A stretch of 64,000 bases of DNA, from contig JBBPEB010000002.1 of the NCBI GenBank assembly GCA_039096225.1, forward strand, positions 744,001-808,000, read 5' to 3'. The translations under genes were made by a program, and so were the position numbers. The notes beneath the pieces are model-generated. The model worked only from the letters and a program-made list of their open reading frames with translations, searched no databases and was not told the origin of the DNA. This document shows, piece after piece, positions 8,930 to 60,353 of this stretch. This DNA is from Blastocystis sp. Blastoise (taxonomy: Eukaryota > Protista > Bigyra: Opalinata). How positions within the stretch are numbered: the first letter of the stretch is position 1; each line of letters starts with the position of its first letter.

Positions 8930-8961
8930 AGAATCTAAAAAAATAAACAAAAATAAAATTA

Positions 8962-9034
8962 CGCCTTGACCCGGGATCGAACCAGGGACCTTATGATCTT
9001 CAGTCATACGCTCTCCCGACTGAGCTATCGAGGC
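8962..9034 (-). tRNA. tRNA-Phe (GAA)
   Basis: GCCTCGATAGCTCAGTCGGGAGAGCGTATGA-CTGAAGA-TCATAAGGTCCCTGGTTCGATCCCGGGTCAAGGCG. Cloverleaf with A/B boxes, followed by oligo-T Pol III terminator runs. Confidence 0.95.
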
Positions 9035-23816: not shown

Positions 23817-24391
23817 GTATATAATTATTATTATTATTATTAGTATTATTGAATATAATTTTGTTTATACTTTATCTTTTTATATATATTTATATGTACC
23901 TATTATATAGGTAGCTGTTCTATATTATATATATATTTTTTCATCTGCTTATGAACCAATTTCTATTTGGTCTCAAACTATAAAAATATGGTATATATAT
24001 ATATATTTACTTATTTATTATTATACTTATTATTATATTTATATAGTTTAATATGTTCACCAAGTGTGTCTCTTTGGTTCTTAACTATATATATAATCAT
24101 ACTTCTATTTATCCTCTTCTCTCTCCTCTTTGTCCTGATAGCTTCTAAAAAGCCACAACAGACTGTCTCTGTAATGCTATGAAAAGCATTACTCTTAAAT
24201 ATAAACAAGAGTATATATATATTATATTATATATATATATCATTATAAGTATAATTTATATTTATTATTATCTTTTTAAATTATAAAATATTATTAATAT
24301 TGAGCTATTCTTTATTGTTTTTATATTACATTATTATATATTATTATTATATATTATTATTATATATTTATTATTATATTTCCCTTAATAG

Positions 24392-27300
24392 ATTTACATG
24401 TCCTTCTCCTCTTGTATTATGTCCTGATAATACATGTAAACCTTCATCTTTTTATTGTTTTCAAACACCTCTTTGTCGATCTCCTTATATAAATTGTCCT
24501 AATGGAGGATGTGCTTTATTCTATCAACAATGTAGACCTAGTATCTTATGTACTTTTGAAAAACCTATTCTTTGTGATAATGGTACTTGTGTTGAAAAGA
24601 ATCAAGATTGTTATTCACAAATTCACTTTATTGAAAGAAATCAACAAGGAAGTATATATATATATATTATATATAAAATAATAATAATATATTTTTTAGA
24701 AACAACTACAACTACAAATATAACTATTCCTTCTTCTTCAATATTATTAACATCTCATTGTCCTTCTGCTTATCCATATTATTGTTCTTCTAGTAAAACA
24801 TGTGTACGAAATAGTTTATTATGTTCAAGTCCTGTTATTTGTCCTACTACGAGTCCTATATTATGTGATACTGGTTATTGTGTATCTTCTTATTCATTAT
24901 GTACTGATGAATCTAATTATCATTGTCCATTAGGATTCTATATGTGTGATTATCAAAAAATATGTGTAGAACATTCTTATTTATGTCCTACTATATCTGT
25001 ATGTAGAGATAATGAAATGAGATGTGAAGATGGAGGTTGTTATATGATTGAAGATAGTACTTATGGTGTTACCAATATATTCCCTTATATCTATAATTCT
25101 TTACAAGAATATAATGAAGAATATTTAGATATAACAGAATATCATGAAAAATCAGATTTAAATATAAAACATACTATAGAACAATGTGTTAGTAAATATT
25201 TAGAAATGTATATTGATGTATGTAATATATATAATAATAAAGAAGATATAAATAATTGTATTGATAAAATAAAAGATCGATATCAACATTTATGTTCACG
25301 TAATTATCAATTTTATCCTTGTAGAAGATATAATATACATTATAGTGATGATAGTTATTATATATATAGTATATCTCCCTATTTTATACCTACAGGAGAT
25401 CCTATTGCTTCTATAGAAGGATCTTTAACTTCGATAAATAAATATTATTGGGATCCATTATCTACAGATACATCCTTTCAATCGAATATCTTATCGAATT
25501 CTATTCCTCCTCCTCTTTGTCCTAAAGGTAGTAAACGATGTATAGAGGGTAGTTGTATATCTCAAAGTGAACAATGTCCTTCTTATCGTATATGTCCAAG
25601 AAATAAACCTATTTTATGTAGTGATGGATTATGTCATTATCATCAGAATCAATGTCTTAATACTATTCATTGTCCTATTAATTATAAATTATGTAATGAT
25701 GGTAGTTGTGTATTTATAACAAAGAAATGTCCATTATTATATTGTCCAACTACAAATCCTATATTATGTTGGGATCAATCATGTCATGTTTCTGAAGATG
25801 ATTGTCCACCTATACCTCCTTATGTACCTTCTAATTGTCTTAATGGAAAATGTATTACTACAGGAGCAAGACAAGTTACAAAATTTACTAGTTTTTGTAG
25901 TATTCATGGAGAATATGTTAAAGATCGAAGTGATTGTATTAATGGATATGAAGGTTATTATAGTATGTGTTTATTGTTATTTTATTTTATTTTTTTTTTA
26001 TTATTTGTATTTTTTTTTATTTTATAATAAATATCTTTTTATAGATAAATATTCAATGGAAAGTGATCATTATGTGACTGGTTTTTGTAGTTATGATAAA
26101 TATTTATGTTCTGATGGTACATGTGTTCGTGATTCTTCTTTATGTTCTGAACCTTTATGTCCTATGTTTAAACCTTATAAATGTATTTCAGGATTATGTG
26201 TATCTTCAAAAGAAGAATGTACATCGAATGATAATTGTAATAATGATCAATTTAGTGGATGGTGTCATAATACATTAATATGTTATACAAAAGATAGTTC
26301 AAAGAATAATATAGATATTTATCATTCTTCTTGTGATTGGACTTGTAATACTAATGGATATATACGTTGTTTAGATGGTACATGTCGTCAATCTATAGAA
26401 GATTGTCCTCTTTCGAATGGTTGCTCTTCTTCTAAACCTAAATCATGTTATAATGGTGAATGTATTAAAGAAGATGAAGAATGTAGTCGTATGTTTGTTT
26501 TATTATTTTATTTTTTTATAATAATTATATTTATATTTATAATAATAATAATAATAATAAATATTATGTAGCTTTATGTGTTGCTCCATATAAACAATGT
26601 GAGAATGGTTTGTGTATGATATCTACTTTTTATTGTCCTTATTCTTCTTATTCATTTATTCCTGAAGATACATCTCCTTCTCCTTCTTTATTTGAAACTT
26701 CATTATTGAATACAGATATAAATAATAATAGTTATATAAATAAAATAATGAATAATATAAAATCTATAATAAATACTCTATATAATACAATAATCGATTC
26801 TTTTATGAAATATATGGATAAATCTTTCTTTACAGAAAATAATCTTCAGAAAACATCTCCTTTATTAAATGAATATGAACATAAATTATTTAACAAAAAT
26901 AATAATACTAATAATAAACTATCCTTATTTTCTTCAGAACTCTTTGAATCTCCTTTAGTTTATTTTGTAGATCGTCAATATTTATATTCTTATTTTTCTA
27001 GTCTTCCTTCATTATGTAGTGAAGATAAACCAATTCGATGTGCTATAGGTATATGTGTGAAATCGTATACAGATTGTCCTTTGATTATGCCTTGTAATAC
27101 AAGTAATTATAATACAAATTATATTCGTTGTTCTGATGGTAGTTGTCGTGCTTCTTCTTCTTTATGTACTGATCGAACTATATGTACATCTCCTTATAAT
27201 TATATGTGTAAAACAGGATTATATAATGGATTATGTGTTGAAAAAGAAGAAGATTGTCTTAGTGATAATGGTAGGTTTATTATTATTATATATTAATTAA

Positions 27301-27950
27301 TAAATAAAAATTATAAATAATAATAATATTATATATAGGTTGTCCATTATCTTCTCCTTATAAATGTCCAACAGGTCGTTGTGTGAAATATTCTTATAAT
27401 TGTACAACTGAATATACCTATCATTCTTGTCCTCATGAAAGACCTTATAAATGTATTCGAGGAGAATGCGTAAGGAATGCTAATGAATGTACATTTATTA
27501 ATGGTTGTTCTCCTCTTCATCCTATATTATGTTCTAATGGTACTTGTGTTTCTACAAGAAATGAATGTTCGTCTATTCTAAATTCAAATATTATTTCTTG
27601 TCCTATAAATCAATCTTATATATGTCCAAATGGTCAATGTGTTTCTCATCCTTCACAATGTTTATTATTCAATAAATGTTCTATATATCATTCTCAAGCA
27701 TGTGCTTCTGGAGATTGTATTCCTTTACATGGTCAACGATATTCACCTATTTTATTATCTTTAAATATTATAAATGAAGATCAATCTGATAATTATTATA
27801 ATTCTATAGAAAATTATATATTATTATATAAAAATAGTCTAAATGAATTTATAATACTCTGATTCTTCGTATATTTTATATAACAATATGAAAACTTCCT
27901 TTTAATATTATGAATACATTATCTATGTATTCTTTATTAGTATATATAAT
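24392..27950 (+). pseudogene. Cysteine-rich repeat protein fragment (CPxxxPxLCxDGxCV repeats), multi-exon
   Basis: ORFs 24300-26027, 25786-26571, 26610-27296 and 27383-27862 joined by short introns. No clear start codon or signal peptide. Confidence 0.75.
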
Positions 27951-28138: not shown

Positions 28139-30673
28139 GTTATATTATATCACGTGTATATGTTCGTGGAATAAATACTGTGGTGGTTGTAACTTCGTCG
28201 GCACTTGCTAAAGTATCTTGATGTTTTCTTTTAGTTTGGTGAACCTCATTCTATATATATATAAATTATATAAACATGATGTACAGAATATAATAATAGT
28301 TACATATAGGTTCATATATGTTATATACACAGCAATAATCTTCGTCATTGTCTTCATTTGATTCCTTGAAGTTATGGATATCACATACTATAACATTTGT
28401 TGGAACTATTTTTTTGATATTAATATATGTCTCATCTAGATTATATGGATCTTTATATATTAAATTATTTGAATTATATATTTTAAAAAAAAGACCACTC
28501 TTTGATGATTTCGTATCAGGATAATGATGAGCCTTTACAATAAATAAGTCTTCTATTTGAATGTATTCTAGTGCCTTTACTAAGCAAACATGGCTTGTTC
28601 CATTTATGTAATCATAATACATCAAATAGGAGTTATCTAATTTTTCTACTCCTTCGTCAATGTCTGTGCACGTAAAAGATAATGAATCATTGATCAAAAT
28701 CTCCGAATATCTAAAGATATTTAATTTCTTGGTGTTCTCCATTACATTATGAAAATTACTTGAATCTCTTAATAATTCTATTCTGCTTTCTGTAGTTATA
28801 TCACCAACATTTAGATTTGAAAATAATTTATTATTAATGTATACGCTATTCATTCTTATTATATGCTTCAAGAATAACTCCGTAAATAATTGAGTATTAT
28901 TATTATTAATACTTTCTCTTATGCCCTTTACTGAATAAATCTTCTGATTTTGGTCAGTAACGTAGTAAACACACTCATAAGCATTAAATGTAACAACATG
29001 AGCTGCTATTGAACTACTCTCCGACTCTAATGAACTATTAATTATTGAAGATGCTATATCTATATCTATTATTTCTTTAAAAGCCATGCTAATTATTGAA
29101 GATTTATTGAAGAAGAATCTTCCATGTGTAAGACGTTTTATTGATGAATAAAACCTTTCAGATTCCCAGGTACTAGTATATTGAAGAGATCCGGCATTTT
29201 GAATTGATTTCGTTAAATGAGAGAAATAATGTATCTGACTATTGATAAATTCTTTTGGCAAAACTAGATCACATAAGAAGAGGAATATATAACACTTAGA
29301 GTTTATTATGCTTAAATCTTCTATTGTTAACATTTGATTCTTTAAAGTACATAACATAATTATATCAGCTTGAATTTCTACTAAAGGAACTAATAACGAA
29401 TCTGTCTGATTAAAGTCTGATATTATTAGTGGTAATATATATGAAGCAAAGAAGATTCTACTGTGTGATGTCATTTTATAAAAACTGGTTTCTTCCAAAG
29501 CGAAGCGAAATTGATTTTCACTATCATAGAAAAAAGAATTTACATATTCTAATCTACTCTTCAGTATTTTAATATTATCTGATGATAATTGTAGTCTCTT
29601 TAGTATTTCATCAGGCTTATTGTATTTATGTTTATTTAAAATATCTGTATATTTCATTGTGTCAAATCCTAATAATAATGACAGAAGAAGAACTATGGTG
29701 TTGTTAAACATGTGCATTGGATCAATATTATAGCTCGTTGCTGCATTAAAATATGGAAGTCTTTCGAATACACTTATTTTTGAATTAATACCGTTCATAG
29801 AAGTTCTTGATGAGGTTTCTTCTCTTGCTATCTCAATAGTTTCTTTTGTATTATCTTCACATATTATTGTAGAATATGCATCAGATTGGGTTTCACTCTT
29901 GAAATACTTAGTATAATTTATGCATTTAATACCGTTGATAATACAATCTTCTTTAACTGTTATTAGACTAGTAGAAATAGGATAGAAGATGGTTGTAGTT
30001 GTAGATGAAGGAGAATAATCTATGAATGGCTTTATAATTGAATACGAAGTCTTTATACCCTTATGGAAGTTATCGTTATCTTTTTGAATATGTAAATTAC
30101 AGAATCTGCATGGATAATTTGAAGCTGGTCCCGTGAATTCACCTATTTTCTGAATTTCAGCAGTATCACCATACACTTCTAAGAGAATTCCAACTACTCT
30201 TTTTTCTTCAAGCAAACCATTATTACAAACAAGCATTGGTATTCCATCTTTCAAAAGTAGAAGTTCTTTTACTAATAGCTGTAAAGCAATGCTACGTTCG
30301 TCTGTAGAAGAAACCGTAAATACCCAAAACTTCCTTTTATCATATAATCTTATGGGCTTATAATTTAGTAGTTTGATGAGTACTGGTTGGGAGCTTTTAT
30401 TCTTTTCTATTAATGGAGAATTATATACAGAAATTCCATCTGAAGTTACGGTGAAGAACAAAAATATATCACCGTTGTTATGAACTGTTTTCATGTACTC
30501 CTTAAAATTATCTCCATTCATGTATAAAGGAAGACTTTTATTTGAAACATAATTATCATGTAATGCTGGTTCTATATCTTCTTTATTATATAATTCAATA
30601 TCTTGAATTAATTTTTCGCTTTTGAGGAGTTGCTTAATACGAGATATCAGTGGTAAAACTGTGGTATATCTAA

Positions 30674-30711
<38 letters not shown>

Positions 30712-31038
30712 CATAATATCATATAATTAATATAATATAATTTAATATAATATAATATAATGTATAGATTTTATACATAACGATATTTATATATATTTAT
30801 AACTATGTTCTATTAAATATGTATATATATATATTAATGTATATCATTGAATATTATATATAATATAATATATATTATATAATTATATATAACATATATA
30901 TATAGGTATATACGAGAGCCGTCACAATTTACAGAGTTGCAATTATTTCTAGAATTTGTAGAAATATTTCTACCTGTATTAAAGTCAACTAATATTTTAC
31001 ATTCTTCACACCAAAATATATTTATACTAAATGGCATA
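28139..31038 (-). CDS. CMC DDE transposase of the 16025-41582 element, 3' portion
   Basis: VTSDGIS, YGDTA..FTG..YPCRFC, IDPMH, IHYFSH, TWESERFYSSIKR; collinear with 13051..14550; exon MPFSINIFWCEEC at ~30910-31037. Confidence 0.85.
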
Positions 31039-37100: not shown

Positions 37101-38944
37101 TTCTCATAAGGTAATAATGGATTAAATAAACATAAGCAATAAACATTAGGTATATAGGCAAAGAGGAAAGGAAATAAAGTAAATAATCGAGAAGATAAAG
37201 AGAATAGAGAGGCAAAGAGACTGGGTCTATAGAAGAAGTATTATTAGAATAATATGTATATTAATATATATAACAATAATAAGTATAAAAATGATAAAAA
37301 TAAATATAATAAAAGAAGAATAGTAATAAATATATATATGTTGATCTTCAGTAGCTGTAAAACAATCAAAATATATATATATACAAATATAGTAATATTG
37401 ATAGAATGATTCAATCTATATATAATAATAATAATAATAATAATAAATAGACATACCATTTTTATTTGAAAGAATAGTACCATCAATCGGATTTGTAAAT
37501 GGGAAAGAAAAATTCATATTCTATATATAATATAATAAGATTAGCATAAAATATTATAATATTAAAATAAATAAAAATTAAATAAATATTTAATATAGGA
37601 AAATGAAAAAAGGGAAAAATGTTAATGCAAACGAAAAAAAATATATATGATATTTATATACTGTTGATAACATGTTTGGTTGTGGTTTGACAGTGTTTTG
37701 AGTTAGCAGAACCAAAAAGAACCTAAAAAAATAAAAAAAAAGAAATGGAAAAAAATACCTTACCAAATAGATAGATAACAACAATTCTTTTTGACAAACA
37801 CTTCTAATAATGACTAAGGAGACTGTTTGAATGCAGACGGGAAGCCAGAATCAAGAACCTAAAAGAATCAGATAAAAAAATAGGAAATATTCAATAAATA
37901 AATTATGATATAATATATACCTGCATGGAAAACACCTAAGATATGCATAGCAGTCACTAGATCTGCTTGTATACAACAAATTAAAAATAAAGATAAATTC
38001 ATATTTAAAGTCAATTTTTTAGTCAAATACTAAAAATTTTCATAAAAATTCATTTTTAATTTTTTTTAAAATTTTTATGACTCAATACTAAAGTAACAAG
38101 TTTTAACAATTATATATTACACTATTGACACAACATTATTGTATCCCACTACTTTCAGGTTTTAAAAAAATACTCATTTTTGTTGACTCTCTGATCTATT
38201 TATATTCTGTTCTAAAAGCTATTGATTATAACTTGAAACGTTTTTATAATACATAATTAACTCTCAAAACAACTCTTTAAAAGACTTTTCTTTGATTCTG
38301 AGGAAAAGTAGTTTTTTTATAAGTTTTGACATACTCTTTGTATGCGGAACTTTAAGTCATGATAGAATAAAATGAAAAAAGTCTTTTAAAACTCTTATGT
38401 CGTCTGATATATAATAAAATATAAATAGACTCACTTTTAAACAATAAAAATATTCCCGTAAATATTTTAAAAATTCAAAACTCTGGTCTGATTGCCCATG
38501 GAACAAATAGGCTCGGTTCAATTTTTCAATGTAAAAAAAATATAAATTTTTGACTTTTTGACTGAATTTTGGTTTTGTCCCATAGAGGTCAGCTTATTCA
38601 CTTTTAATCATATATGTGACTATGAGAGGGTCTTCACTTTAAACACAACTATAAAATACTTTAAAATATTGACCCCATTATTTGTCGGAATTGCGACTTT
38701 AAAATAAATAAAAACGTTTTGGATATTGGGTGACCCTCTGCAAATAAAAATTAATGTCAATTCTTTATTAAAATATGTCTAATAGGGTATTTGAGTCTAA
38801 ATCAAAAGTCGACTTAAAAATTTTGTGAAAATTTTCATTTTTTTGCCTAAGTCTTTTTTTTCTTGAGTTTTCATTGGCTGAATCAATTTTGAACGAAAAT
38901 CAACCAATCAAAAACCTTCAAAAACTCAAAAGTGCCTACCAGTG
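31039..38944 (+). mobile_element. Nested non-autonomous CACTG element (7.9 kb) carrying degenerate gene fragments
   Basis: 12-bp perfect TIR CACTGGTAGGCA/TGCCTACCAGTG; TSD ATA at 31036-31038 and 38945-38947; interrupts a transposase exon. Confidence 0.92.
32740..37960 (-). pseudogene. Mosaic of degenerate captured exons, products unidentified
   Basis: Many GT..AG-bounded coding-like segments with stops; one exon shared with 20717-20890; 57-bp tandem duplication near 33822-33937. Confidence 0.5.
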
Positions 38945-44710: not shown

Positions 44711-45139
44711 TAAGATCAAAAATAAAACACAAGAGCTAATCAATTATTATTAATAAACAATAAATATATATAATCAATAATAAAAATAGCTAAAATGATA
44801 CTAAATAAAAAAGGAAATAATACTCAAAAAAATGTAATATAAAATGTTAAATAGGAATTATCAATAAAGTATGAATTGAATTATTTAGAATATACTAAAC
44901 TAATAACTAAACAATAGAAGATAACAACTAAAACAATTGAAATAATAATTTATAAAATATGAAATAGTCTTCATCCTAAAAATAAAAAAAATAGAAATGA
45001 ATAACAAAAACATAAAAATAAACATAATATTAAAAAAAAACATAAAATATAACAATTAAGAGATGACAACTATCAAAACTCAAGCGTAGGTGGCGTAGCC
45101 AGTCGTGAAACGCTTGTATATATAAATATATTAATATAC

Positions 45140-46020
45140 CATTTTATATCGCTATTCTTTAAATAATATGAACCATCACCTAATTTGTTTGGACCTAATT
45201 CGCAAAGTTTTTTTGCTGTATAGGTTTTTCCCAAACCAGTTTCGCCCCATATATATATAACTACTGGAGATTCTACTCTTTTCTTTTCATTAAAATCATA
45301 GATTAATCTCTTAATTGCTTGTGAATGTAAGAGTGTAAATCCCGGAAATTCGTGCCATATAGCATCGTAAGTATTACCATTCCTTATTGCTGTAGCTACT
45401 TCTTCGGAAATTTTTTTCGGATGTTTTTTATTTTTATAATATTTAACATCTGTTTTAATAAATCTAATAGGACCAGGTGATAACGGAGAAGGTTCACTAC
45501 TTATGTTTCTTGATTCTAAGTTATACAGTCTTCCATTGAAAGTTTGACTTGCAAATAAATCACGATGAGTACCACTTGTTATAGCTCCATAGCCTCTAGT
45601 ATTTTGGTTACGATATATTTCATGTAAATTATTTATCTATATATATATATATATATACATATATATATGTATATACCTCTGATAAATAATATAGTACGTT
45701 TTCACGAGTTCCATCACGAGGTCTAACATCTGTATGTTCCAACTGAAGCATTCTTCGGACCTTATTTCTTCTTCTTCTTGTTGTTAATTCAATGTATAAA
45801 TGTGTATGCGTATTATGTGTTTCGTTATTAGGTTCAGTTACATACGCCACATACATAATTTCCTGTGGTAAACCATTTTCCTCCCAATTAGGTAGAGTCT
45901 CTTGAAAAAAGAAATCTCGGTCATCACCGAATAGTGTACAAAACCAATATTGACTTTGTGGTGACTATATACATATATACATAATAATTATATAAATACA
46001 ACATTATTATTATCACTCAT
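45140..46020 (-). pseudogene. rep: Divergent Rep paralog, truncated before Walker B
   Basis: Exons 46020-46000, 45964-45677 and 45636-45140 give YWFCTLF, THTHLYIE, VLYYLSE, WGETGLGKT...DIKW. The last exon is absent. Confidence 0.88.
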
Positions 46021-46337
46021 ATTTATAAAATATCAAATAAATATTAAAATAAATTATAAAATAAATTATAAAATAAAATAAATATAAGCCACGTCAGCAT
46101 AATTAAAAATACAGAATATGCCCTTATATCTTGTCAGGACCTAATCACCAGTCAATAAAAATTAAATTGTACCCATTCCCAAAACTCTTTTTTTGCTATT
46201 TTTAGGGTCTAATTCCTTCTGGATAAAAAGTTATTTCAATTTAAAGGTTTGGGACCCTAATTATAAATATTAAGAATTACACTACAACCAAACTCAACTT
46301 ATCCAATCCGATCGGAGAAACTCAAGATTCCTCCAAT

Positions 46338-46374
46338 CAAATTGAGCGATGACGCATTATTACATCACAATTTG
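46338..46374 (+). promoter_or_regulatory. Putative rolling-circle origin, copy 1 (nonamer CATTATTAC at 46355-46363)
   Basis: CAAATTG-AGC-GATG [ACGCATTATTA] CATC-A-CAATTTG imperfect stem; fits the NANTATTAC consensus. Confidence 0.75.
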
Positions 46375-46871
46375 CTCTCAGCGAAACACGAAACAAAGAT
46401 CATCATAAGAGTATTTGACTCGAAAGTCAGAAGTAAATCTTACAATTAGTTGATCTTGATTTTTTATATCTATATTGTCTTTGTTTTCTATTCTTTCGAA
46501 CCACCTTTCTAATATATTACTACTTGAGAAATTCAACTCAATGCACATGTTCATGTGTATTCACGGGAAAGTTTTTTTACATTCGCGGCTTTTACCCGTA
46601 TATACCGTTCTTTATATTTAGCCGCCCCGTGAATATCTTTGTGAGTGAGAGCTGAGAGCAAATGCTCAGTTTTGTGGTTGTATAGTACTCTCGGATCCTT
46701 ATCTTGTTTTATTGTAGAAGTTCACAAAGAGTATGGTCGCGCAGTCGAGTTTGGTGTTCGATTTTTTTTTTTTTTTTTTTATGTTTTTTTTTAAAAAGAA
46801 TTAACAAAACAGTGTTTTTAATTATATATTATTATATTAGACAAGAATTAATGTTTGTAGTGTTAGTATAT

Positions 46872-47618
46872 TTAGTGTCGTAATCTATCTGGTAGATGTT
46901 GAGCATAGTATACCATAGGTGATGTTCCTGCTGTTTGTGCAGCGGCAACGTATCTTGTAGCTTCGTCGAACAATGCAGTGATAACGGTATTATATTGTGG
47001 TTCTGTTCTGAAAGTCATTTGTCCTCCTTCTGAAATATTATACATAATAGGAAATGTGTTGATTCCTCCCATTTGGTATATAAAAACTAGTATTGTTTCT
47101 GCTTTTGTAAAATCATCGGATGCATAGTAGATGGGTAGTGTGAAATCATAGGCGAGTTGTTCTGCAGTGAATGGATAGGTATAGAGTAAACCGTTTAGTC
47201 TATATATATATTCTTTTTTGACTCCGTTTTTGTTAATTGTGTAGACTGTGTTTATAATTTGTTTGATAGTAGAGTTGCAGAGTTTTTTAATGTTCTTTGC
47301 ATTTTCGTCGTCACCTGTAGCGCTTGGTATAAATATTTGAATTGGTATAGTATAATCTGTTGATGTTAATAGTGTTCTAGCTTGAGCTACGTACATTCTT
47401 CCACATTTTTTGGCTACAAGCATTAATTGGTGCCTAAGTTTGTGTTTATTTGCGATTCCACCTACGGTAGTATCTTCGGCGATAGTTGCCCAATTTGTTC
47501 TAAAAGAATTAACTGCATTGTTATAAGTGGTTACAGCGTTTGAATTTCTATTATATCTTCTTCTTCTATAATAGGTACGTTGAGTACCTCTATATCTGGA
47601 TGAGTATCTATAAGGCAT
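46872..47618 (-). CDS. 248-aa protein with Arg/Tyr-rich N-terminal arm (capsid or genome-binding structural protein)
   Basis: MPYRYSSRYRGTQRTYYRRRRYNRN N-terminus typical of CRESS capsids; intronless intact ORF. Confidence 0.65.
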   Translation of the reverse strand: MPYRYSSRYRGTQRTYYRRRRYNRNSNAVTTYNNAVNSFRTNWATIAEDTTVGGIANKHKLRHQLMLVAKKCGRMYVAQARTLLTSTDYTIPIQIFIPSATGDDENAKNIKKLCNSTIKQIINTVYTINKNGVKKEYIYRLNGLLYTYPFTAEQLAYDFTLPIYYASDDFTKAETILVFIYQMGGINTFPIMYNISEGGQMTFRTEPQYNTVITALFDEATRYVAAAQTAGTSPMVYYAQHLPDRLRH

Positions 47619-47672
47619 TTATTGTAAATAAAATAAATAAAATATGATATGATTTGATTAATAATTATTAAT

Positions 47673-47776
47673 GGAGTCAGTTTATCTGAATATATAAATT
47701 TGTTTTTAGAGACGGTTTATCTGAATATATAAATTCGTATTAGGAGACAGTTTATCTGTATATATAAATTCGTTTT
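47673..47776. promoter_or_regulatory. 35-bp x3 repeat with TATA motif between the divergent structural genes (also 52720-52823)
   Basis: GAG(T/A)C(A/G)GTTTATCTG(A/T)ATATATAAATT at 47673, 47708 and 47743. Confidence 0.6.
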
Positions 47777-47816
47777 CTTATAAATATGTTTTGTTATTTT
47801 GCATAAATTATTTTAA

Positions 47817-49055
47817 ATGTCTAGTTTAGGTACTATAATAAATGACAAGTTGTCAATGGCTAGTTCCTCTGCGGGAGCCCTTTATCTTAAGCGTTACGTT
47901 AATCCTTGTGATGATACTTCTATACCTGTTGACGGTGTACCTGATGGCCAAACCCACATGATTTATACTTTAAATAATAAGTTTAATATATCTATAGATC
48001 AAGATACATTTGTAGATCCTAGAGCTGTTGTCCCAGATTTATATAATAATTTTACTATAATTGCAACACCATGGTCTACTTATCCTATTTTGATTTATGG
48101 TACATTTACTTGGTATAATACTGTGGATAAAACATCATCATCTCAAACATGTATTATGGGTGTTAAAGATCCTAATTGGCAGCAAAATCAAGAAGATTTT
48201 AATTTAGGTCGTGGATTATTTCGTGGTTGTACATTAAAATGGGCTGGTAATACTAATAATATGCAAGGTCTTATATATGGTATTCAAGTACCGTATTGTG
48301 TAGATACTATGTATACTACTAGTGGTAGTGTAGAATCTCAAGATTTATCTTATAAAGCTTTTAATAGTTATATGAATCCTTATATTCCTTTAGATTCTAA
48401 TGCTATTACTTCTTATTCTCCAAAATATAAAGTATTTAATGTCCCTGATGGTTGTTATATGCCTCAACATTTATCTTATGGTTATAAGAATTATTATAGG
48501 CCACCTATATTTCAAAAGAAACAACTTGATACAGGAGATAGTTATGAATATTTTATTAATGGATTATTAGGAAGTGCTAGTGCTCAAATGAATATATTTG
48601 ATTATGATACTTGGATGTCTAAAAGAATATTTACTAAGGTTATGTTACCTATAGAAGTAACTGAATATGTTCCTTCTTTCTTACATACTGGATTTAATTT
48701 TGGTATTATTAGAGTTGAAGGTTCAAATTTTAACAATCCATTTACTTTAAAAATATGTAATGGTTATGAGTTAGTTCCTTCTTATAATAGTGAGTATTTC
48801 CCATTATTAAAGAATCCTCCTTTATTAGATGAACAAGCTCTTTATGCTTGTGCTATTTTAACTCAATCATTAGATTTTTGTTATCCTTCTTCTTATAATG
48901 ATTTTCAAACTATGTGGAATGGTGTAGTTGATTTCTGGAATAAATTTAAAAGGTCTTGGAATAGTGAAACTGTTCAAAATATAGCTACAGCTGCTAGTGC
49001 TATACCTGGTGTTTCTCCATGGGTTCAAGGAATAAATACTTTAACTAAATTTTAA
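47817..49055 (+). CDS. 412-aa capsid protein, alphanodavirus/tetravirus-like (peptidase A6/A21-type autocleaving coat)
   Basis: GALYLKRYVNP..GVPDG; GCYMP; LK..GYELVP..PPLLDEQAL..YPSSYN|DFQTMW..AASAIPG C-terminus. Confidence 0.75.
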   Translation: MSSLGTIINDKLSMASSSAGALYLKRYVNPCDDTSIPVDGVPDGQTHMIYTLNNKFNISIDQDTFVDPRAVVPDLYNNFTIIATPWSTYPILIYGTFTWYNTVDKTSSSQTCIMGVKDPNWQQNQEDFNLGRGLFRGCTLKWAGNTNNMQGLIYGIQVPYCVDTMYTTSGSVESQDLSYKAFNSYMNPYIPLDSNAITSYSPKYKVFNVPDGCYMPQHLSYGYKNYYRPPIFQKKQLDTGDSYEYFINGLLGSASAQMNIFDYDTWMSKRIFTKVMLPIEVTEYVPSFLHTGFNFGIIRVEGSNFNNPFTLKICNGYELVPSYNSEYFPLLKNPPLLDEQALYACAILTQSLDFCYPSSYNDFQTMWNGVVDFWNKFKRSWNSETVQNIATAASAIPGVSPWVQGINTLTKF

Positions 49056-49152
49056 TTTATGTGTATATATATTTTTATTTGTCTTAAATTAATTTTGTTT
49101 TGTTCAATTTTTATTATTACTACTCACACTCACTGCACTTCAACACAAATAT

Positions 49153-49227
49153 TATTTCACAATTTCACAATTTCACAAAATCACAATTTCACATTTTCAC
49201 AGATACACAATTTCACAATTGCACAAT
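49153..49227. repeat. 8-bp ATTTCACA tandem repeat between the convergent cap and rep 3' ends (also 54200-54274)
   Basis: About 9 imperfect units. Confidence 0.8.
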
Positions 49228-49340
49228 GTGTTGAGTTGCATATGAATTATATAACAAAACAAATAAGTTTTTAAAACAAAGATATAACTGAGAAAAGATA
49301 TGAAATCAGAAAAACTCAATAGATAATAAATATATAGAAT

Positions 49341-51066
49341 TTAGAATTCTTGTTTAATGTTTTGAGAGTCTGGGAGTATACAATAATCATCTTCGCTACT
49401 ATCCCATGAAAGACTTATAGGTTTATTATGATCAGAATATTCTTCATCGTCTTCTTCATTATCAGTGAAAGTGAGATCAATGAGTTCATTACTATATTCG
49501 TTATCTGAAGATGATAAATCTAGAATAGGTATAGGAGTATTAGGTCTTTTGTGACAGAAATTTGTTTTTTTAGGAGTAGTTATTTCAATAGTAGGAAGAG
49601 ATATACGAGGAGTTGTTGGAGGTGAGCTAAGGGTAAGTTCATTATCTAGTTCTATTTGTATGGGTATATTGACTGTTGGTTTGTATTGATTATTAATTTT
49701 CATCATAATATCAGCGGCTTGTATATATTTGGTTTCATCATCTTTATATAGTAGATTACGTCTGATACCTTTGATGTAATCATCTTTAGCTTTGCTATAT
49801 TTGAAATCAATAGTATTATCTTCAAGTAATTCATATTCATTGTAGAATCTTCTGAGTAGTTGTTCTAATTCATCATTTGAAAGTTCTTTGAAATTTTCTT
49901 TTAAGCTTCTATCAGACGTAAATATAATTAGAGGTGAGGTGATTTTTACTGTTGAACCTTTTGTTTCCACTCCTACATCATAATAATCTAAAATACGAAG
50001 AAGGTCTTTATCATTATAGATTTTTCTAAAATCATCAATAATGATGCCAAACTGACCTTTGTATCCATCCCACCTATAAATATAGAATATAATATAATAT
50101 ATACCATTTAATATCTCCATTCTTCATGTAGTAAGATCCTTTACCATCTTCATTTTCGCCTAGTTCACATATTTTTTTAGCTGTATAAGTTTTACCTACT
50201 CCAGTTTTCCCATATAAATATAAAACTATAGGTGCAGTATTTCTTTTTTTGGTATTAAAGTCATAGATTGCTTTTTTTATGTTATTTGAATGTAATAGGG
50301 CAAAGGAAGCATATTCTTCCCATATATCTTCATAAGTACAACCATTTTTTATCATTGAAGCAACTTCTTCAGATATTTTTTTTGGATCTATATATATAAT
50401 ATAAATTATAATGTATATACGTTTTTTGTTTTTAGAATATTTGACTTTATTATGAGTAAAATTCATAGGAGCTGTAGATATTGGGTCTATTCTAGCAAAG
50501 CTATTATTATTATTCATATTATAAAGAACACCATTATAAGTAGAAGCATTTATTAAATCGCGATGCATTCCATTTTGAAAGTTTGCTCCATATCCAAGTG
50601 TATTGCTTGTATTGTAATATTCATCTATTTCATTTATCTAATATTTATAATTAAATAATTAAATTAATATATATAAATATATACTTCACTTAAATAAATT
50701 AAAGTTGCCTCTCGTGACCACTCCCTTGGTCTTACATCAGTATGCTCTAAGGATAGTAATCTTATTATCTGATTTCTTCTTAACCTTTTTTTCATTTCCA
50801 TATATAAATGTACATGAGTGTTGTTTGTAGTCGGAGATACTTCTCTTGATAAAGCAACATAGTTCTATATATATATATATATAATATATTTATATACTAT
50901 TTCAAATGGAAGACCATTACTATTCCAACTGGGTTGGATTACTTCATTAAAATGTAAAAGGTCTTCACCAAATAAAGTAAGAGTCCAATATTGAGACTGA
51001 CGGTTCTATATAACAATAACTTAAATATATTTATTAATATACAGGGTTAGTATTATTATTTTGCAT
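49341..51066 (-). CDS. rep: Replication-associated protein Rep (HUH endonuclease plus SF3 helicase), 6 exons, 514 aa
   Basis: Exons 51066-51043, 51005-50898, 50864-50685, 50637-50421, 50387-50105 and 50073-49341 splice in frame. Motifs WTLTLF, HVHLY, YLSE, GKTGVGKT, WWDGY, IIIDDF, VETKG, IIFTSD, LLRRF. Confidence 0.92.
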
Positions 51067-51384
51067 TTTTTTTTTTTTTACTAAAAATTATAAAATAAAT
51101 TATAAAATAAATTATAAAATAAAATAAATATAAGCCACGTCAGCATAATTAAAAATACAGAATATGCCCTTATATCTTGTCAGGACCTAATCACCAGTCA
51201 ATAAAAATTAAATTGTACCCATTCCCAAAACTCTTTTTTTGCTATTTTTAGGGTCTAATTCCTTCTGGATAAAAAGTTATTTCAATTTAAAGGTTTGGGA
51301 CCCTAATTATAAATATTAAGAATTACACTTACAACCAAACACAACTTATCCAATCCGATCGGAGAAACTCAAGATTCCTCCAAT

Positions 51385-51421
51385 CAAATTGAGCGATGAC
51401 GCATTATTACATCACAATTTG
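51385..51421 (+). promoter_or_regulatory. Putative origin, copy 2 (nonamer 51402-51410)
   Basis: Identical to copy 1. Confidence 0.75.
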
Positions 51422-51918
51422 CTCTCAGCGAAACACGAAACAAAGATCATCATAAGAGTATTTGACTCGAAAGTCAGAAGTAAATCTTACAATTAGTTGA
51501 TCTTGATTTTTTATATCTATATTGTCTTTGTTTTCTATTCTTTCGAACCACCTTTCTAATATATTACTACTTGAGAAATTCAACTCAATGCACATGTTCA
51601 TGTGTATTCACGGGAAAGTTTTTTTACATTCGCGGCTTTTACCCGTATATACCGTTCTTTATATTTAGCCGCCCCGTGAATATCTTTGTGAGTGAGAGCT
51701 GAGAGCAAATGCTCAGTTTTGTGGTTGTATAGTACTCTCGGATCCTTATCTTGTTTTATTGTAGAAGTTCACAAAGAGTATGGTCGCGCAGTCGAGTTTG
51801 GTGTTCGATTTTTTTTTTTTTTTTTTTATGTTTTTTTTTAAAAAGAATTAACAAAACAGTGTTTTTAATTATATATTATTATATTAGACAAGAATTAATG
51901 TTTGTAGTGTTAGTATAT

Positions 51919-52665
51919 TTAGTGTCGTAATCTATCTGGTAGATGTTGAGCATAGTATACCATAGGTGATGTTCCTGCTGTTTGTGCAGCGGCAACGTAT
52001 CTTGTAGCTTCGTCGAACAATGCAGTGATAACGGTATTATATTGTGGTTCTGTTCTGAAAGTCATTTGTCCTCCTTCTGAAATATTATACATAATAGGAA
52101 ATGTGTTGATTCCTCCCATTTGGTATATAAAAACTAGTATTGTTTCTGCTTTTGTAAAATCATCGGATGCATAGTAGATGGGTAGTGTGAAATCATAGGC
52201 GAGTTGTTCTGCAGTGAATGGATAGGTATAGAGTAAACCGTTTAGTCTATATATATATTCTTTTTTGACTCCGTTTTTGTTAATTGTGTAGACTGTGTTT
52301 ATAATTTGTTTGATAGTAGAGTTGCAGAGTTTTTTAATGTTCTTTGCATTTTCGTCGTCACCTGTAGCGCTTGGTATAAATATTTGAATTGGTATAGTAT
52401 AATCTGTTGATGTTAATAGTGTTCTAGCTTGAGCTACGTACATTCTTCCACATTTTTTGGCTACAAGCATTAATTGGTGCCTAAGTTTGTGTTTATTTGC
52501 GATTCCACCTACGGTAGTATCTTCGGCGATAGTTGCCCAATTTGTTCTAAAAGAATTAACTGCATTGTTATAAGTGGTTACAGCGTTTGAATTTCTATTA
52601 TATCTTCTTCTTCTATAATAGGTACGTTGAGTACCTCTATATCTGGATGAGTATCTATAAGGCAT
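51919..52665 (-). CDS. 248-aa Arg-rich-arm protein, copy 2
   Basis: Identical translation to 46872..47618. Confidence 0.65.
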   Translation of the reverse strand: MPYRYSSRYRGTQRTYYRRRRYNRNSNAVTTYNNAVNSFRTNWATIAEDTTVGGIANKHKLRHQLMLVAKKCGRMYVAQARTLLTSTDYTIPIQIFIPSATGDDENAKNIKKLCNSTIKQIINTVYTINKNGVKKEYIYRLNGLLYTYPFTAEQLAYDFTLPIYYASDDFTKAETILVFIYQMGGINTFPIMYNISEGGQMTFRTEPQYNTVITALFDEATRYVAAAQTAGTSPMVYYAQHLPDRLRH

Positions 52666-52863
52666 TTATTGTAAATAAAATAAATAAAATATGATATGAT
52701 TTGATTAATAATTATTAATGGAGTCAGTTTATCTGAATATATAAATTTGTTTTTAGAGACGGTTTATCTGAATATATAAATTCGTATTAGGAGACAGTTT
52801 ATCTGTATATATAAATTCGTTTTCTTATAAATATGTTTTGTTATTTTGCATAAATTATTTTAA

Positions 52864-54102
52864 ATGTCTAGTTTAGGTACTATAATAAATGACAAGTTGT
52901 CAATGGCTAGTTCCTCTGCGGGAGCCCTTTATCTTAAGCGTTACGTTAATCCTTGTGATGATACTTCTATACCTGTTGACGGTGTACCTGATGGCCAAAC
53001 CCACATGATTTATACTTTAAATAATAAGTTTAATATATCTATAGATCAAGATACATTTGTAGATCCTAGAGCTGTTGTCCCAGATTTATATAATAATTTT
53101 ACTATAATTGCAACACCATGGTCTACTTATCCTATTTTGATTTATGGTACATTTACTTGGTATAATACTGTGGATAAAACATCATCATCTCAAACATGTA
53201 TTATGGGTGTTAAAGATCCTAATTGGCAGCAAAATCAAGAAGATTTTAATTTAGGTCGTGGATTATTTCGTGGTTGTACATTAAAATGGGCTGGTAATAC
53301 TAATAATATGCAAGGTCTTATATATGGTATTCAAGTACCGTATTGTGTAGATACTATGTATACTACTAGTGGTAGTGTAGAATCTCAAGATTTATCTTAT
53401 AAAGCTTTTAATAGTTATATGAATCCTTATATTCCTTTAGATTCTAATGCTATTACTTCTTATTCTCCAAAATATAAAGTATTTAATGTCCCTGATGGTT
53501 GTTATATGCCTCAACATTTATCTTATGGTTATAAGAATTATTATAGGCCACCTATATTTCAAAAGAAACAACTTGATACAGGAGATAGTTATGAATATTT
53601 TATTAATGGATTATTAGGAAGTGCTAGTGCTCAAATGAATATATTTGATTATGATACTTGGATGTCTAAAAGAATATTTACTAAGGTTATGTTACCTATA
53701 GAAGTAACTGAATATGTTCCTTCTTTCTTACATACTGGATTTAATTTTGGTATTATTAGAGTTGAAGGTTCAAATTTTAACAATCCATTTACTTTAAAAA
53801 TATGTAATGGTTATGAGTTAGTTCCTTCTTATAATAGTGAGTATTTCCCATTATTAAAGAATCCTCCTTTATTAGATGAACAAGCTCTTTATGCTTGTGC
53901 TATTTTAACTCAATCATTAGATTTTTGTTATCCTTCTTCTTATAATGATTTTCAAACTATGTGGAATGGTGTAGTTGATTTCTGGAATAAATTTAAAAGG
54001 TCTTGGAATAGTGAAACTGTTCAAAATATAGCTACAGCTGCTAGTGCTATACCTGGTGTTTCTCCATGGGTTCAAGGAATAAATACTTTAACTAAATTTT
54101 AA
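52864..54102 (+). CDS. 412-aa noda/tetravirus-like capsid, copy 2
   Basis: Identical translation to 47817..49055. Confidence 0.75.
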   Translation: MSSLGTIINDKLSMASSSAGALYLKRYVNPCDDTSIPVDGVPDGQTHMIYTLNNKFNISIDQDTFVDPRAVVPDLYNNFTIIATPWSTYPILIYGTFTWYNTVDKTSSSQTCIMGVKDPNWQQNQEDFNLGRGLFRGCTLKWAGNTNNMQGLIYGIQVPYCVDTMYTTSGSVESQDLSYKAFNSYMNPYIPLDSNAITSYSPKYKVFNVPDGCYMPQHLSYGYKNYYRPPIFQKKQLDTGDSYEYFINGLLGSASAQMNIFDYDTWMSKRIFTKVMLPIEVTEYVPSFLHTGFNFGIIRVEGSNFNNPFTLKICNGYELVPSYNSEYFPLLKNPPLLDEQALYACAILTQSLDFCYPSSYNDFQTMWNGVVDFWNKFKRSWNSETVQNIATAASAIPGVSPWVQGINTLTKF

Positions 54103-54387
54103 TTTATGTGTATATATATTTTTATTTGTCTTAAATTAATTTTGTTTTGTTCAATTTTTATTATTACTACTCACACTCACTGCACTTCAACACAAATATT
54201 ATTTCACAATTTCACAATTTCACAAAATCACAATTTCACATTTTCACAGATACACAATTTCACAATTGCACAATGTGTTGAGTTGCATATGAATTATATA
54301 ACAAAACAAATAAGTTTTTAAAACAAAGATATAACTGAGAAAAGATATGAAATCAGAAAAACTCAATAGATAATAAATATATAGAAT

Positions 54388-56113
54388 TTAGAATTCTTGT
54401 TTAATGTTTTGAGAGTCTGGGAGTATACAATAATCATCTTCGCTACTATCCCATGAAAGACTTATAGGTTTATTATGATCAGAATATTCTTCATCGTCTT
54501 CTTCATTATCAGTGAAAGTGAGATCAATGAGTTCATTACTATATTCGTTATCTGAAGATGATAAATCTAGAATAGGTATAGGAGTATTAGGTCTTTTGTG
54601 ACAGAAATTTGTTTTTTTAGGAGTAGTTATTTCAATAGTAGGAAGAGATATACGAGGAGTTGTTGGAGGTGAGCTAAGGGTAAGTTCATTATCTAGTTCT
54701 ATTTGTATGGGTATATTGACTGTTGGTTTGTATTGATTATTAATTTTCATCATAATATCAGCGGCTTGTATATATTTGGTTTCATCATCTTTATATAGTA
54801 GATTACGTCTGATACCTTTGATGTAATCATCTTTAGCTTTGCTATATTTGAAATCAATAGTATTATCTTCAAGTAATTCATATTCATTGTAGAATCTTCT
54901 GAGTAGTTGTTCTAATTCATCATTTGAAAGTTCTTTGAAATTTTCTTTTAAGCTTCTATCAGACGTAAATATAATTAGAGGTGAGGTGATTTTTACTGTT
55001 GAACCTTTTGTTTCCACTCCTACATCATAATAATCTAAAATACGAAGAAGGTCTTTATCATTATAGATTTTTCTAAAATCATCAATAATGATGCCAAACT
55101 GACCTTTGTATCCATCCCACCTATAAATATAGAATATAATATAATATATACCATTTAATATCTCCATTCTTCATGTAGTAAGATCCTTTACCATCTTCAT
55201 TTTCGCCTAGTTCACATATTTTTTTAGCTGTATAAGTTTTACCTACTCCAGTTTTCCCATATAAATATAAAACTATAGGTGCAGTATTTCTTTTTTTGGT
55301 ATTAAAGTCATAGATTGCTTTTTTTATGTTATTTGAATGTAATAGGGCAAAGGAAGCATATTCTTCCCATATATCTTCATAAGTACAACCATTTTTTATC
55401 ATTGAAGCAACTTCTTCAGATATTTTTTTTGGATCTATATATATAATATAAATTATAATGTATATACGTTTTTTGTTTTTAGAATATTTGACTTTATTAT
55501 GAGTAAAATTCATAGGAGCTGTAGATATTGGGTCTATTCTAGCAAAGCTATTATTATTATTCATATTATAAAGAACACCATTATAAGTAGAAGCATTTAT
55601 TAAATCGCGATGCATTCCATTTTGAAAGTTTGCTCCATATCCAAGTGTATTGCTTGTATTGTAATATTCATCTATTTCATTTATCTAATATTTATAATTA
55701 AATAATTAAATTAATATATATAAATATATACTTCACTTAAATAAATTAAAGTTGCCTCTCGTGACCACTCCCTTGGTCTTACATCAGTATGCTCTAAGGA
55801 TAGTAATCTTATTATCTGATTTCTTCTTAACCTTTTTTTCATTTCCATATATAAATGTACATGAGTGTTGTTTGTAGTCGGAGATACTTCTCTTGATAAA
55901 GCAACATAGTTCTATATATATATATATATAATATATTTATATACTATTTCAAATGGAAGACCATTACTATTCCAACTGGGTTGGATTACTTCATTAAAAT
56001 GTAAAAGGTCTTCACCAAATAAAGTAAGAGTCCAATATTGAGACTGACGGTTCTATATAACAATAACTTAAATATATTTATTAATATACAGGGTTAGTAT
56101 TATTATTTTGCAT
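54388..56113 (-). CDS. rep: Rep, copy 2 (6 exons)
   Basis: Same as 49341..51066 shifted by 5047. Confidence 0.92.
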
Positions 56114-56431
56114 TTTTTTTTTTTTTACTAAAAATTATAAAATAAATTATAAAATAAATTATAAAATAAAATAAATATAAGCCACGTCAGCATAATTAAA
56201 AATACAGAATATGCCCTTATATCTTGTCAGGACCTAATCACCAGTCAATAAAAATTAAATTGTACCCATTCCCAAAACTCTTTTTTTGCTATTTTTAGGG
56301 TCTAATTCCTTCTGGATAAAAAGTTATTTCAATTTAAAGGTTTGGGACCCTAATTATAAATATTAAGAATTACACTTACAACCAAACACAACTTATCCAA
56401 TCCGATCGGAGAAACTCAAGATTCCTCCAAT

Positions 56432-56468
56432 CAAATTGAGCGATGACGCATTATTACATCACAATTTG
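56432..56468 (+). promoter_or_regulatory. Putative origin, copy 3 (nonamer 56449-56457)
   Basis: Identical to copy 1. Confidence 0.75.
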
Positions 56469-56775
56469 CTCTCAGCGAAACACGAAACAAAGATCATCAT
56501 AAGAGTATTTGACTCGAAAGTCAGAAGTAAATCTTACAATTAGTTGATCTTGATTTTTTATATCTATATTGTCTTTGTTTTCTATTCTTTCGAACCACCT
56601 TTCTAATATATTACTACTTGAGAAATTCAACTCAATGCACATGTTCATGTGTATTCACGGGAAAGTTTTTTTACATTCGCGGCTTTTACCCGTATATACC
56701 GTTCTTTATATTTAGCCGCCCCGTGAATATCTTTGTGAGTGAGAGCTGAGAGCAAATTGTGATGTAATAATATAT

Positions 56776-57314
56776 CACTGTTATTCTGGTTTCATCATTT
56801 TAAATCATATGATTGGCTTATTTCAGTTCAAAATTTGTTCAGCCACTAAAAATAGAGTAGTTTCATGGACTTAGGCAAAAATCGTGGATTTTGACAAAAT
56901 TTTGACACTTTTTTCAGTCGACTTTTGATTTAGACTTTAAAACCCTATTAGACAAATTTTAATAAAGAATTGGCATTATTGTTTATTTACAGAGGGTCAC
57001 ATAATACCCAAAACGTTTTTCTTTATTTTAAAGTGTTAATTTTGTGAATTCATGGTGTCCAAATTTTTTAAATTTTATAGTAGTGTTTGAAGTTTAGACC
57101 CTCTTATAGTCATAAATGTAATTAAAAGTGAATAAGCTGGTCTCTATGACTCAGAACCAAAATTCAGTCAAAAAATCAAAAATTTATTTCTTTTTACACT
57201 GAAAAATTGAGCCGAGCCTATTTGTATCATGGACAGTCAGACCAGAGTTTTCCATTTGAGATAATTGACTCAGGACGCTTTAAATTGTAAAACTTGACTC
57301 AGGATAGTCTATTT
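56776..57314 (+). mobile_element. End of another CACTG (CMC) element; the partner end is not in the window
   Basis: Begins CACTG; the next ~500 bp are similar to 16060-16550. Confidence 0.75.

Positions 57315-60353
<3,039 letters not shown>

Follow-up and report, generated by a model that had tools for sequence, protein, structure and literature searches.

Background

Noda-like capsids are already known in circular Rep-encoding single-stranded DNA (CRESS) viruses, and a 2017 Virology paper is cited for capture of a nodavirus capsid by the Bacilladnaviridae. This capture is described in PMC13623192, PMC11903649 and PMC9426455. Similar captures are known for Gandrviridae-type genomes (10.1101/555375, PMC11945456), and 'Nodacap' cressviruses have a noda-like capsid at Z 18 (PMC11071296). 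The bacilladnavirus ClorDNAV has a capsid of 390 amino acids (aa), and a long C-terminal helix is present in the model of one kieseladnavirus capsid (PMC12667125). In Blastocystis assemblies, 38 endogenous CRESS elements have been found, 37 of them Rep-like and one capsid-like (PMC9615429). The subject of this report is a tandem array of a CRESS virus element in a 64,000-nt stretch (the window) of Blastocystis sp. Blastoise, from contig JBBPEB010000002.1 (1,322,594 bases) of assembly GCA_039096225.1. The 412-aa capsid encoded by this element resembles those of nodaviruses, tetraviruses and Lake Sinai virus (LSV), and may retain both their self-cleavage site and the lytic tail (gamma peptide) that follows it.

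The maturation cut itself has been described in RNA viruses. Flock House virus (FHV) is cut at N363/A364, catalysed by D75 (PMC8046363), and in NwV, a tetravirus, E103 brings about the cut at N570/F571 by cyclisation of the Asn (PMC12956891). Neither a CRESS capsid with a retained gamma-like tail nor a clade of arm-less capsids like the one described below was found in print, in a literature survey whose scope lay outside subscription journals, ICTV proposals and supplements; the supplement of PMC9615429, which may hold the single capsid-like element, bears on this negative result. The word 'cleavage' was absent from the available main text of PMC9426455, PMC12667125 and PMC11945456.

A transcribed CRESS virus element with a nodavirus-type capsid

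The array (46035..56757) contained 2.12 copies of a 5047/5048-bp unit arranged head to tail (self-BLAST 99.9% over 5677 bp). The full copies differed at five positions, all of them non-coding, and the GC content of the array was 0.29 vs 0.21 in either flank. Three genes were found per unit: an open reading frame (ORF) on the minus strand, called ORF-A, the capsid gene on the plus strand, and an intron-split Rep gene on the minus strand. The capsid gene was located at 47817..49055 (+) and, in an identical second copy, at 52864..54102 (+). As in the Cressdnaviricota, the capsid gene was part of a circular unit of a few kb, represented here by the head-to-tail 5047-bp repeat and in a related locus (L002) by a closed circle, and Rep combined an HUH endonuclease with an SF3 helicase. 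The array is thus a CRESS virus element tandemly integrated in a eukaryote contig, and its virions are predicted to contain ssDNA. Because contigs of run X1 covered the capsid, ORF-A and Rep genes and skipped three GT-AG Rep introns, and because the Rep frame was open, the element is intact and transcribed. X1 was one of three runs, from a single study, and the other two, X2 and X3, gave no coverage, which is not evidence of absence; X1 is not on record as RNA and its contigs are of RNA type, and since it possibly represents the source culture it was not counted as independent evidence. A near-identical capsid and ORF-A are annotated at NCBI on the same contig; because these differ from the window proteins by one and three residues, respectively, a further copy of the element probably lies outside the window.

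A sequence-only reading of this DNA had proposed that the ORF at 47817-49055 (+) encoded a DNA-virus capsid with a nodavirus-like autocleavage site and a gamma peptide. Its coordinates were exact for the 412-aa ORF, for N361 (AAT, 48897-48899) and for the 51 residues that follow, and every motif it quoted was present in the translation. It was silent on the tandem integration, on expression, on the lack of a basic arm, on the Arg-rich gene beside the capsid gene and on the bacilladnavirus precedent.

The proposed noda/tetravirus descent was borne out, far beyond chance, by profile matches and by fold comparison, and the gene is linked to Rep. A phmmer search of the PDB returned the LSV1 and LSV2 capsids (E 3.6e-6 and 6.7e-6) as the only significant matches, two of six rows. 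HMMER over 1.84 billion representatives found 33 proteins at E <=0.001, and a profile search added more (16 rows). The 45-row profile, made from 30 of the 33 (without P0012, P0017 and P0033), the later matches and cluster mates, matched LSV (1e-45), HaSV (9e-19), Providence virus (PrV, 8e-18), NwV (1e-15), Black beetle virus (BBV, 6e-11), FHV (1e-10) and also Nodamura virus, over a whole span of E 1e-45 to 1e-7. A search against Peptidase_A6/A21 had been suggested as a check; the Pfam models alone gave a weak result (PF03566 13.1 bits vs a cut-off of 25, E 0.029; PF01829 no match). ESM features placed the capsid at 0.95 to Peptidase_A6 clusters, with the family annotated on 44-45% of their members. 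A word-indexed protein search with the single capsid matched only itself, and IMG/VR scans with the capsid, the capsid profile, ORF-A, a Rep exon, the L002 Rep and P0002 returned no relative.

The AlphaFold model of the capsid, with a predicted local distance difference test score (pLDDT) of 76 and a predicted template-modelling score of 0.78, had the expected jelly-roll fold and an inner domain of N- and C-terminal helices. The best fold matches were NwV (Z 29.6, root-mean-square deviation 4.0, 322 residues aligned), LSV2 (28.4, 3.8, 324) and FHV (28.0, 2.9, 304). Across the 975 chains aligned, Z was 24-30 for noda-, tetra- and LSV capsids and 18-20 for those of bacilladnaviruses and birnaviruses; no other jelly roll exceeded 8. 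Among the best 50 BFVD matches listed, many of which were nameless, the highest one bearing a cressdnavirus name stood at rank 40. Judged by profile and model, the capsid is homologous to noda-, tetra- and LSV capsids, more so than to those of bacilladnaviruses. Since RNA-virus capsids outranked bacilladnavirus capsids both by Z and in BFVD, and the arm-less capsids formed one branch, the gene likely came from an RNA virus in a capture separate from that made by bacilladnaviruses.

The cleavage site and its pocket

By fold register, N361 (48897..48899, +) corresponds structurally to the scissile Asn, and it was conserved in 45/45 homologs. In 13 of 23 noda/tetra/LSV rows, residue 361 aligned with the last residue of the beta chain, which was N363 (FHV, BBV and Nodamura), N361 (Pariacoto), N556, N570 or N575; nine of the remaining rows were uncleaved chains that run on into the tail (to 375-412), and one was truncated. 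Residues around the site were also recognizable. According to PMC9892032, T238, Y331 and K411 of LSV2 equate with T246, Y453 and K521 of NwV. In the window capsid these correspond to T139 (48231..48233, +; 45/45 homologs), Y214 of the GCYMP motif (48456..48458, +; 44/45) and K312 (48750..48752, +; Lys or Arg in 14/24 close homologs, Glu in 9/24), so that T139, Y214, K312 and N361 match four listed NwV/PrV pocket residues.

The residue that would catalyse the cut is not the one first proposed. The sequence-only reading had assigned this role to D43 (47943..47945, +), in a VPD motif. D43 was invariant in the 24 close homologs and present in 43 of 45 overall, as would suit a catalytic residue; however, it aligned with the IPD Asp of BBV (D86) and of NwV (D115), whereas the catalytic residues are D75 and E103, it is also present in uncleaved LSV, and it is absent from the pocket residues listed in the available text of PMC9892032. 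Catalysis by D43 at N361 is therefore extremely improbable. In the BBV alignment, D75 lies two residues past an invariant Pro, at the place of D32 (47910..47912, +), and D86 lies at the place of D43. The N-terminal stretch of this alignment taken alone had an E of only 3, but the register agreed with the start positions of the profile and fold alignments as well as with the profile columns. D32 is thus the predicted catalytic acid, and D43 is predicted to belong to a structural PD motif. Because the candidate is D32, the D43N mutant suggested earlier as a control would test a structural residue. The closest relative (P0002, 39% identity) and P0003 likewise have Asp at position 32, and the position of NwV E103 is not acidic in the window capsid (Ser/Thr).

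The C-terminal tail

The gamma-like tail (residues 362-412; 48900..49052, +) would, if released as predicted, be a 51-aa amphipathic peptide of 5.8 kDa with an isoelectric point (pI) of 8.5. The predicted amphipathic helix spans residues 362-379 (363-381 in the AlphaFold model) and has a hydrophobic moment of 0.59; the moment of the first 18 tail residues ranked second among the 395 windows of the protein and was equalled in 5 of 2000 shuffles. The net charge of this helix was +1 in the window capsid and ranged from +2 to +5 among the remaining 23 close homologs; by count from printed alignments, it is +2 in FHV and -3 in LSV2. W367 was invariant in 24/24 and aligned with W367 of FHV, and the helix carries three Trp. 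Two further parallels with FHV had been drawn, and these fared differently. PPLLDEQAL did align with the LDEVAL helix of FHV, whereas the octamer TAASAIPG was not conserved in the family and only its helix-Pro-Gly turn recurred.

In the 16 non-redundant rows left after removing those more than 70% identical, conservation of the tail was 0.41-0.50 vs 0.31 for a surface insert. The beta part has a pI of 4.9, so that the tail is the sole cationic part of an otherwise acidic capsid. As predicted from sequence, a cationic amphipathic tail favours an FHV-like peptide and would also suit a DNA-binding inner helix. A correlation between D32 and tail amphipathicity was considered as well; it came from a by-eye reading, the groups overlapped, and it was dropped.

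Capsids without a basic arm and the Arg-rich partner gene

The basic N-terminal genome-binding arm is missing from the window capsid, which had three Arg or Lys in its first 45 residues, a net charge of -7, and 19 residues with a single Lys before the first helix. The 24 closest homologs were 381-424 aa long with 0-3 Arg or Lys before the first helix. Net charge was negative in 13/13 arm-less homologs checked and +7 to +17 in three arm-bearing relatives. Many homologs were on 5.5-6.5-kb contigs, and L002 closed into a 5.6-kb circle by a 15-nt terminal repeat. Among seven homolog loci taken from 124 pattern matches, four encoded Rep (L001, L002, L003 and L006), one encoded an RNA-dependent RNA polymerase (L007), and two had the capsid alone. 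In the tree of the 45 rows, the window capsid paired with P0002 (99/98), the five Rep-linked rows fell in one 20-row arm-less branch (98/94), and the two RNA-viral rows stood apart (99/96); genome type was lacking for 38 rows, label shuffles were not significant (59/500), and the root was a midpoint root only.

ORF-A (46872..47618, -; identical second copy at 51919..52665, -) encodes 248 aa and lies head to head with the capsid gene; X1 contigs covered it. Its N-terminus is Arg-rich, with nine Arg or Lys and no acids in the first 30 residues, and its net charge is +13. The same layout was found in L002 and L006, the only two loci with upstream DNA (L001 and L003 end short of it). In these, the opposite strand holds an Arg-rich ORF (228-249 aa) that begins 90-91 bases upstream, compared with 198 bases for ORF-A. 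These data suggest that the clade of about 20 arm-less capsids, with a head-to-head Arg-rich gene at both loci where it could be seen, is new, and the product of ORF-A may take over the DNA-neutralising role of the missing arm. ORF-A had no Pfam match, no usable match in the structure Atlas (every template-modelling score below 0.5) and only weak coiled-coil matches in a PDB profile search. A second jelly-roll capsid was unsupported by its single-sequence model, which was mostly helical at pLDDT 38. Prediction of a complex of capsid and ORF-A, run with ORF-A poorly folded and with its alignment unused, scored 0.00, which speaks neither for nor against such a complex. Between the divergent ORF-A and capsid starts were three direct repeats of 34-35 bp (47673..47776), which are possible promoter or Rep-binding repeats.

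Other features of the relatives were noted. A fourth ORF of 465-556 aa without a Pfam match was present in L002 (1808-3475, -) and L006 (1556-2950, -) and absent from the window unit. L003 is probably another endogenous copy because it adjoins an RMI1 gene; between its intact Rep and the eukaryotic metalloprotease and RMI1 genes were more Rep-like fragments (2927-4312), making it a second case of a capsid-Rep pair with broken Rep copies next to host genes. On the branch next to the Rep-linked clade were P0011, P0014, P0018 and P0003, which comprise arm-bearing capsids of 513-515 aa and an arm-less one of 381 aa with the same NPCDD loop, and which may be the closest RNA-virus donors.

Proposed maturation and alternative explanations

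From these analyses we infer virions, a T=3-type shell, assembly-triggered cleavage and membrane activity. The capsid would assemble around ssDNA condensed by the product of ORF-A, in a shell whose T=3 type is suggested by the lack of an Ig-like domain and a length close to that of the FHV alpha protein. Assembly would trigger the cut, with D32 promoting cyclisation of N361 as described for NwV, and at entry the 5.8-kDa tail would be released and disrupt the membrane. We give an even chance to this proposal as a whole, that is, a transcribed CRESS capsid with a T=3-type shell that cuts itself after N361 with D32 as the acid and frees a membrane-opening tail of 51 residues. Self-cleavage after N361, taken alone and judged from sequence and model, appears about equally likely to occur or not.

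Several observations weigh against the proposal. Position 32 was Asp in only 4 of the 24 closest homologs and His in 20 (3 and 13 of the 16 non-redundant rows). The residue after the cut (P1') is D362, as in LSV, and is Asp in 17/24 close homologs and 13/16 non-redundant rows, whereas cleaved relatives of solved structure have a small or aromatic residue there (Ala, Ser or Phe). In NwV the site forms late in maturation, with the N570-E103 distance falling from 16 A to 4 A (PMC12956891). At the cleavage site LSV1 and LSV2 retain Tyr-Asn-Asp, and they were uncleaved in every cryo-electron microscopy map from pH 6.5 to 8.5, for particles made in E. coli (PMC9892032). Asn at position 361 does not by itself show cleavage, because LSV keeps this motif and stays uncleaved, and the earlier inference of a cut from the Asn was overstated for this reason. 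The invariance of N361 is equally explained by structure, because an acid at position 32 is not a family trait and K312 is replaced by Glu in 9/24. A helix that packs inside the shell is amphipathic in any case, and tail amphipathicity beat its own shuffles (P<0.06) in only 15 of the 24 close homologs. In the AlphaFold model, the alignment included RNA-virus-type homologs, and the tail past residue 390 had pLDDT below 55. As for the role given to ORF-A, its body scored 2.1 bits against the Arg-rich proteins of L002 and L006, below many of 500 shuffles. With no detectable homology between the bodies of these proteins, and with Reps that are likewise distant, what is shared is the layout.

These observations lead to a different reading, in which the tail stays attached as in LSV, forming an inner helix that stabilises the shell, binds ssDNA and partly replaces the basic arm; N361 would be kept for structure, and entry would occur by other means. 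This reading is somewhat doubtful but has to be taken seriously. It accounts for LSV being the best sequence match with the same motif uncleaved, for the P1' Asp and the frequent His at position 32, and for a tail that is the only cationic part of the capsid. However, the window capsid, P0002 and P0003 have an Asp where LSV has Gly, so that non-cleavage in LSV can be explained by a residue that the window capsid has, and the tail helix of LSV is acidic whereas that of the window capsid is cationic with three Trp. Furthermore, LSV was cleaved only once the loop and P1' had both been engineered, and the two effects were not reported separately in the available text of PMC9892032. The band size of native LSV2 is inconsistent within PMC4488739 (57.3 and 53.7 kDa) and was not used.

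A further reading, which is improbable, takes the locus for a copy kept by the host or joined during sequence assembly, one that makes no virions and carries the cleavage motif as an inherited relic. The eukaryote contig, the transposon-like repeats around the array and the broken second Rep beside it would fit such a copy, as would the dependence on one run that is possibly the source culture, and a rolling-circle concatemer would also give identical head-to-tail copies. On the other hand, all three genes are intact and Rep is correctly spliced, relatives occur with Rep on 5.5-6.5-kb contigs, one of which closes into a circle, and the same contig has an annotated further copy of both capsid and ORF-A that differs slightly. 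The question of the motif concerns the virus lineage either way.

The proposed self-cleavage is of interest beyond this locus. The tail bears on an unsolved question, namely the way in which small ssDNA viruses of protists that have no envelope get across membranes. Bacilladnaviruses took a nodavirus capsid, yet the solved ClorDNAV chain stops where a lytic peptide would begin. With the whole precursor present in a DNA virus, expression of one gene could show whether a captured capsid gene brings along the maturation chemistry of RNA viruses. Within the family, the catalytic position (Asp or His) and P1' (Asp, Ala, Lys or Arg) both vary naturally, which allows one to ask what makes the site cleave, a question left open by LSV. 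The family also breaks a reported rule, namely that above about 4 kb a basic arm is required in noda-type DNA capsids. To our knowledge no virus has been isolated from Blastocystis, and the window holds an intact, expressed virus element of a culturable gut protist. The most far-reaching possibility, which we consider rather unlikely, is an undescribed 5-6-kb ssDNA lineage of gut protists with a separate capsid capture, working self-cleavage with a gamma peptide, and the arm moved to an Arg-rich core protein. If cleavage and gamma peptide do work, this would be the first DNA virus to mature in this way.

Rep genes and non-coding DNA of the array

The first Rep copy extends from its second exon to the stop at 49341..51001 (-), and the second copy was located at 54388..56048 (-) by tblastn; a short first exon upstream is predicted. 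Introns at 50074-50104, 50388-50420 and 50638-50684 (-) were spliced out in the RNA-type contigs, and one at 50865-50897 (-) was predicted. The spliced frame is open for 504 aa and contains motifs I and II, Walker A, B and motif C; motif III is not canonical, and PF00910 matched both helicase exons below its cut-off. Identity to the four locus Reps was 25-30% over the helicase. Unlike the intron-split window Rep, those of L002, L003 and L006 are each encoded by an unspliced ORF. The window Rep has a long tail beyond the helicase (49341-49650, -), rich in Pro/Thr and Asp/Glu, whereas those three have acidic N-terminal extensions instead; L006 also has a RanBP-type zinc ribbon match. A second, diverged Rep (45080..45960, -; 56-57% protein identity), which ends after the Walker A region, sits at the place of the Rep of a preceding tandem copy, suggesting that two related viruses recombined on integration.

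A stem-loop in the large intergenic region (46558..46635) is a candidate origin. Four regions were searched on both strands, and its DNA fold had z -3.3, with none of 200 shuffles equally stable; no canonical nonanucleotide was seen in its loop. The right end of the array is about 30 nt beyond the third copy of this stem-loop, and a search for target-site duplications at the array ends found nothing beyond a 7-mer of A/T. The surrounding non-coding DNA (46100-46870, about 770 nt) holds the stem-loop and a run of more than 20 T, and is outside the X1 contig cover. Between the converging capsid and Rep stops were three loose 36-nt repeats rich in CACAATTT (49136-49227).

Flanking DNA

The flanks are AT-rich eukaryote DNA with reverse transcriptase and transposase-like genes and a ubiquitin hydrolase fragment. 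A non-LTR-type reverse transcriptase (1944-4382, -; PF00078 E 1e-33) and the neighbouring ORFs at 736-1695 and 4436-9007 (-) are probably one retroelement. Transposase-like ORFs with weak DUF4218 matches were found at 13051-14550 (+), 28266-30722 (-) and 58054-58650 (+). A dispersed 360-530-bp repeat was present at 16025-16552, 38417-38944 and 56896-57257, the last copy 140 bases to the right of the viral array. A large intron-split gene at 24300-27862 (+) with many Cys-rich repeats (CPxxxPxxCxxGxC), of which the tested piece had no Pfam match, encodes a probable surface protein.

Comparison with known systems

Among DNA viruses, the Pecoviridae (CRESSV1) likely share the host genus Blastocystis. 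In the available descriptions (PMC13475009, PMC11945456), their genomes measure close to 2.9 kb and have two ORFs and a TAGTATTAC origin, and the capsid arms are very basic. The window unit instead is 5.05 kb long and has three genes, with several introns in Rep and a capsid that lacks the arm; the two are set apart here by these descriptions, not by Rep phylogeny. The Bacilladnaviridae, Gandrviridae and 'Nodacap' viruses resemble the window element in having ssDNA genomes of 3.4-6 kb, a noda-derived T=3 capsid and stramenopile hosts (PMC13623192, PMC11903649). Some small bacilladnaviruses likewise have no basic arm, but those are below 4 kb, whereas the clade of the window capsid is at 5-6 kb with a separate Arg-rich gene. 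The structural match to bacilladnavirus capsids was weaker (Z 17.6-19.8). Residue 388 of ClorDNAV aligned with N361 and its chain ends two residues later, so that it has no gamma-like tail; PLA1 is the proposed entry aid in this family. A capsid ending near the scissile position, a diatom host and a GC content of 40-50% characterize the Bacilladnaviridae, and the window element has a 51-aa tail, Blastocystis as its host and a GC content of 0.29.

The RNA viruses are closer in the capsid itself. The Alpha/Carmotetravirus capsids (NwV, HaSV, Providence virus; Peptidase A21) gave the top Z, have N570, N575 and N556 at the place of N361, and share the equivalents of T246, Y453 and K521; unlike the window capsid, they have an Ig-like domain, about 230 more residues, an acid at E103 where the window has Ser/Thr, and Phe rather than Asp at P1'. 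The alpha protein of alphanodaviruses (Flock House, Black beetle, Pariacoto and Nodamura; Peptidase A6) shares the fold over the whole beta chain, a similar length without an Ig-like domain, Asp at the D75 position, Asn at the N363 position, and a cationic amphipathic tail with the same Trp. The window capsid differs from it in its Rep-encoding ssDNA genome, in identity of about 16%, in having no basic N-terminal arm and in a P1' Asp instead of Ala or Ser, and its cleavage is only predicted here. The LSV capsid (Sinhaliviridae; 7xgz, 7xpg) was the best sequence match and shares the YxNP loop, GxPD, GxYMP, YPxxYND and the P1' Asp. However, LSV combines a basic arm with Gly at the D75 position and an acidic tail helix, whereas the arm-less window capsid has Asp at that position and a cationic tail.

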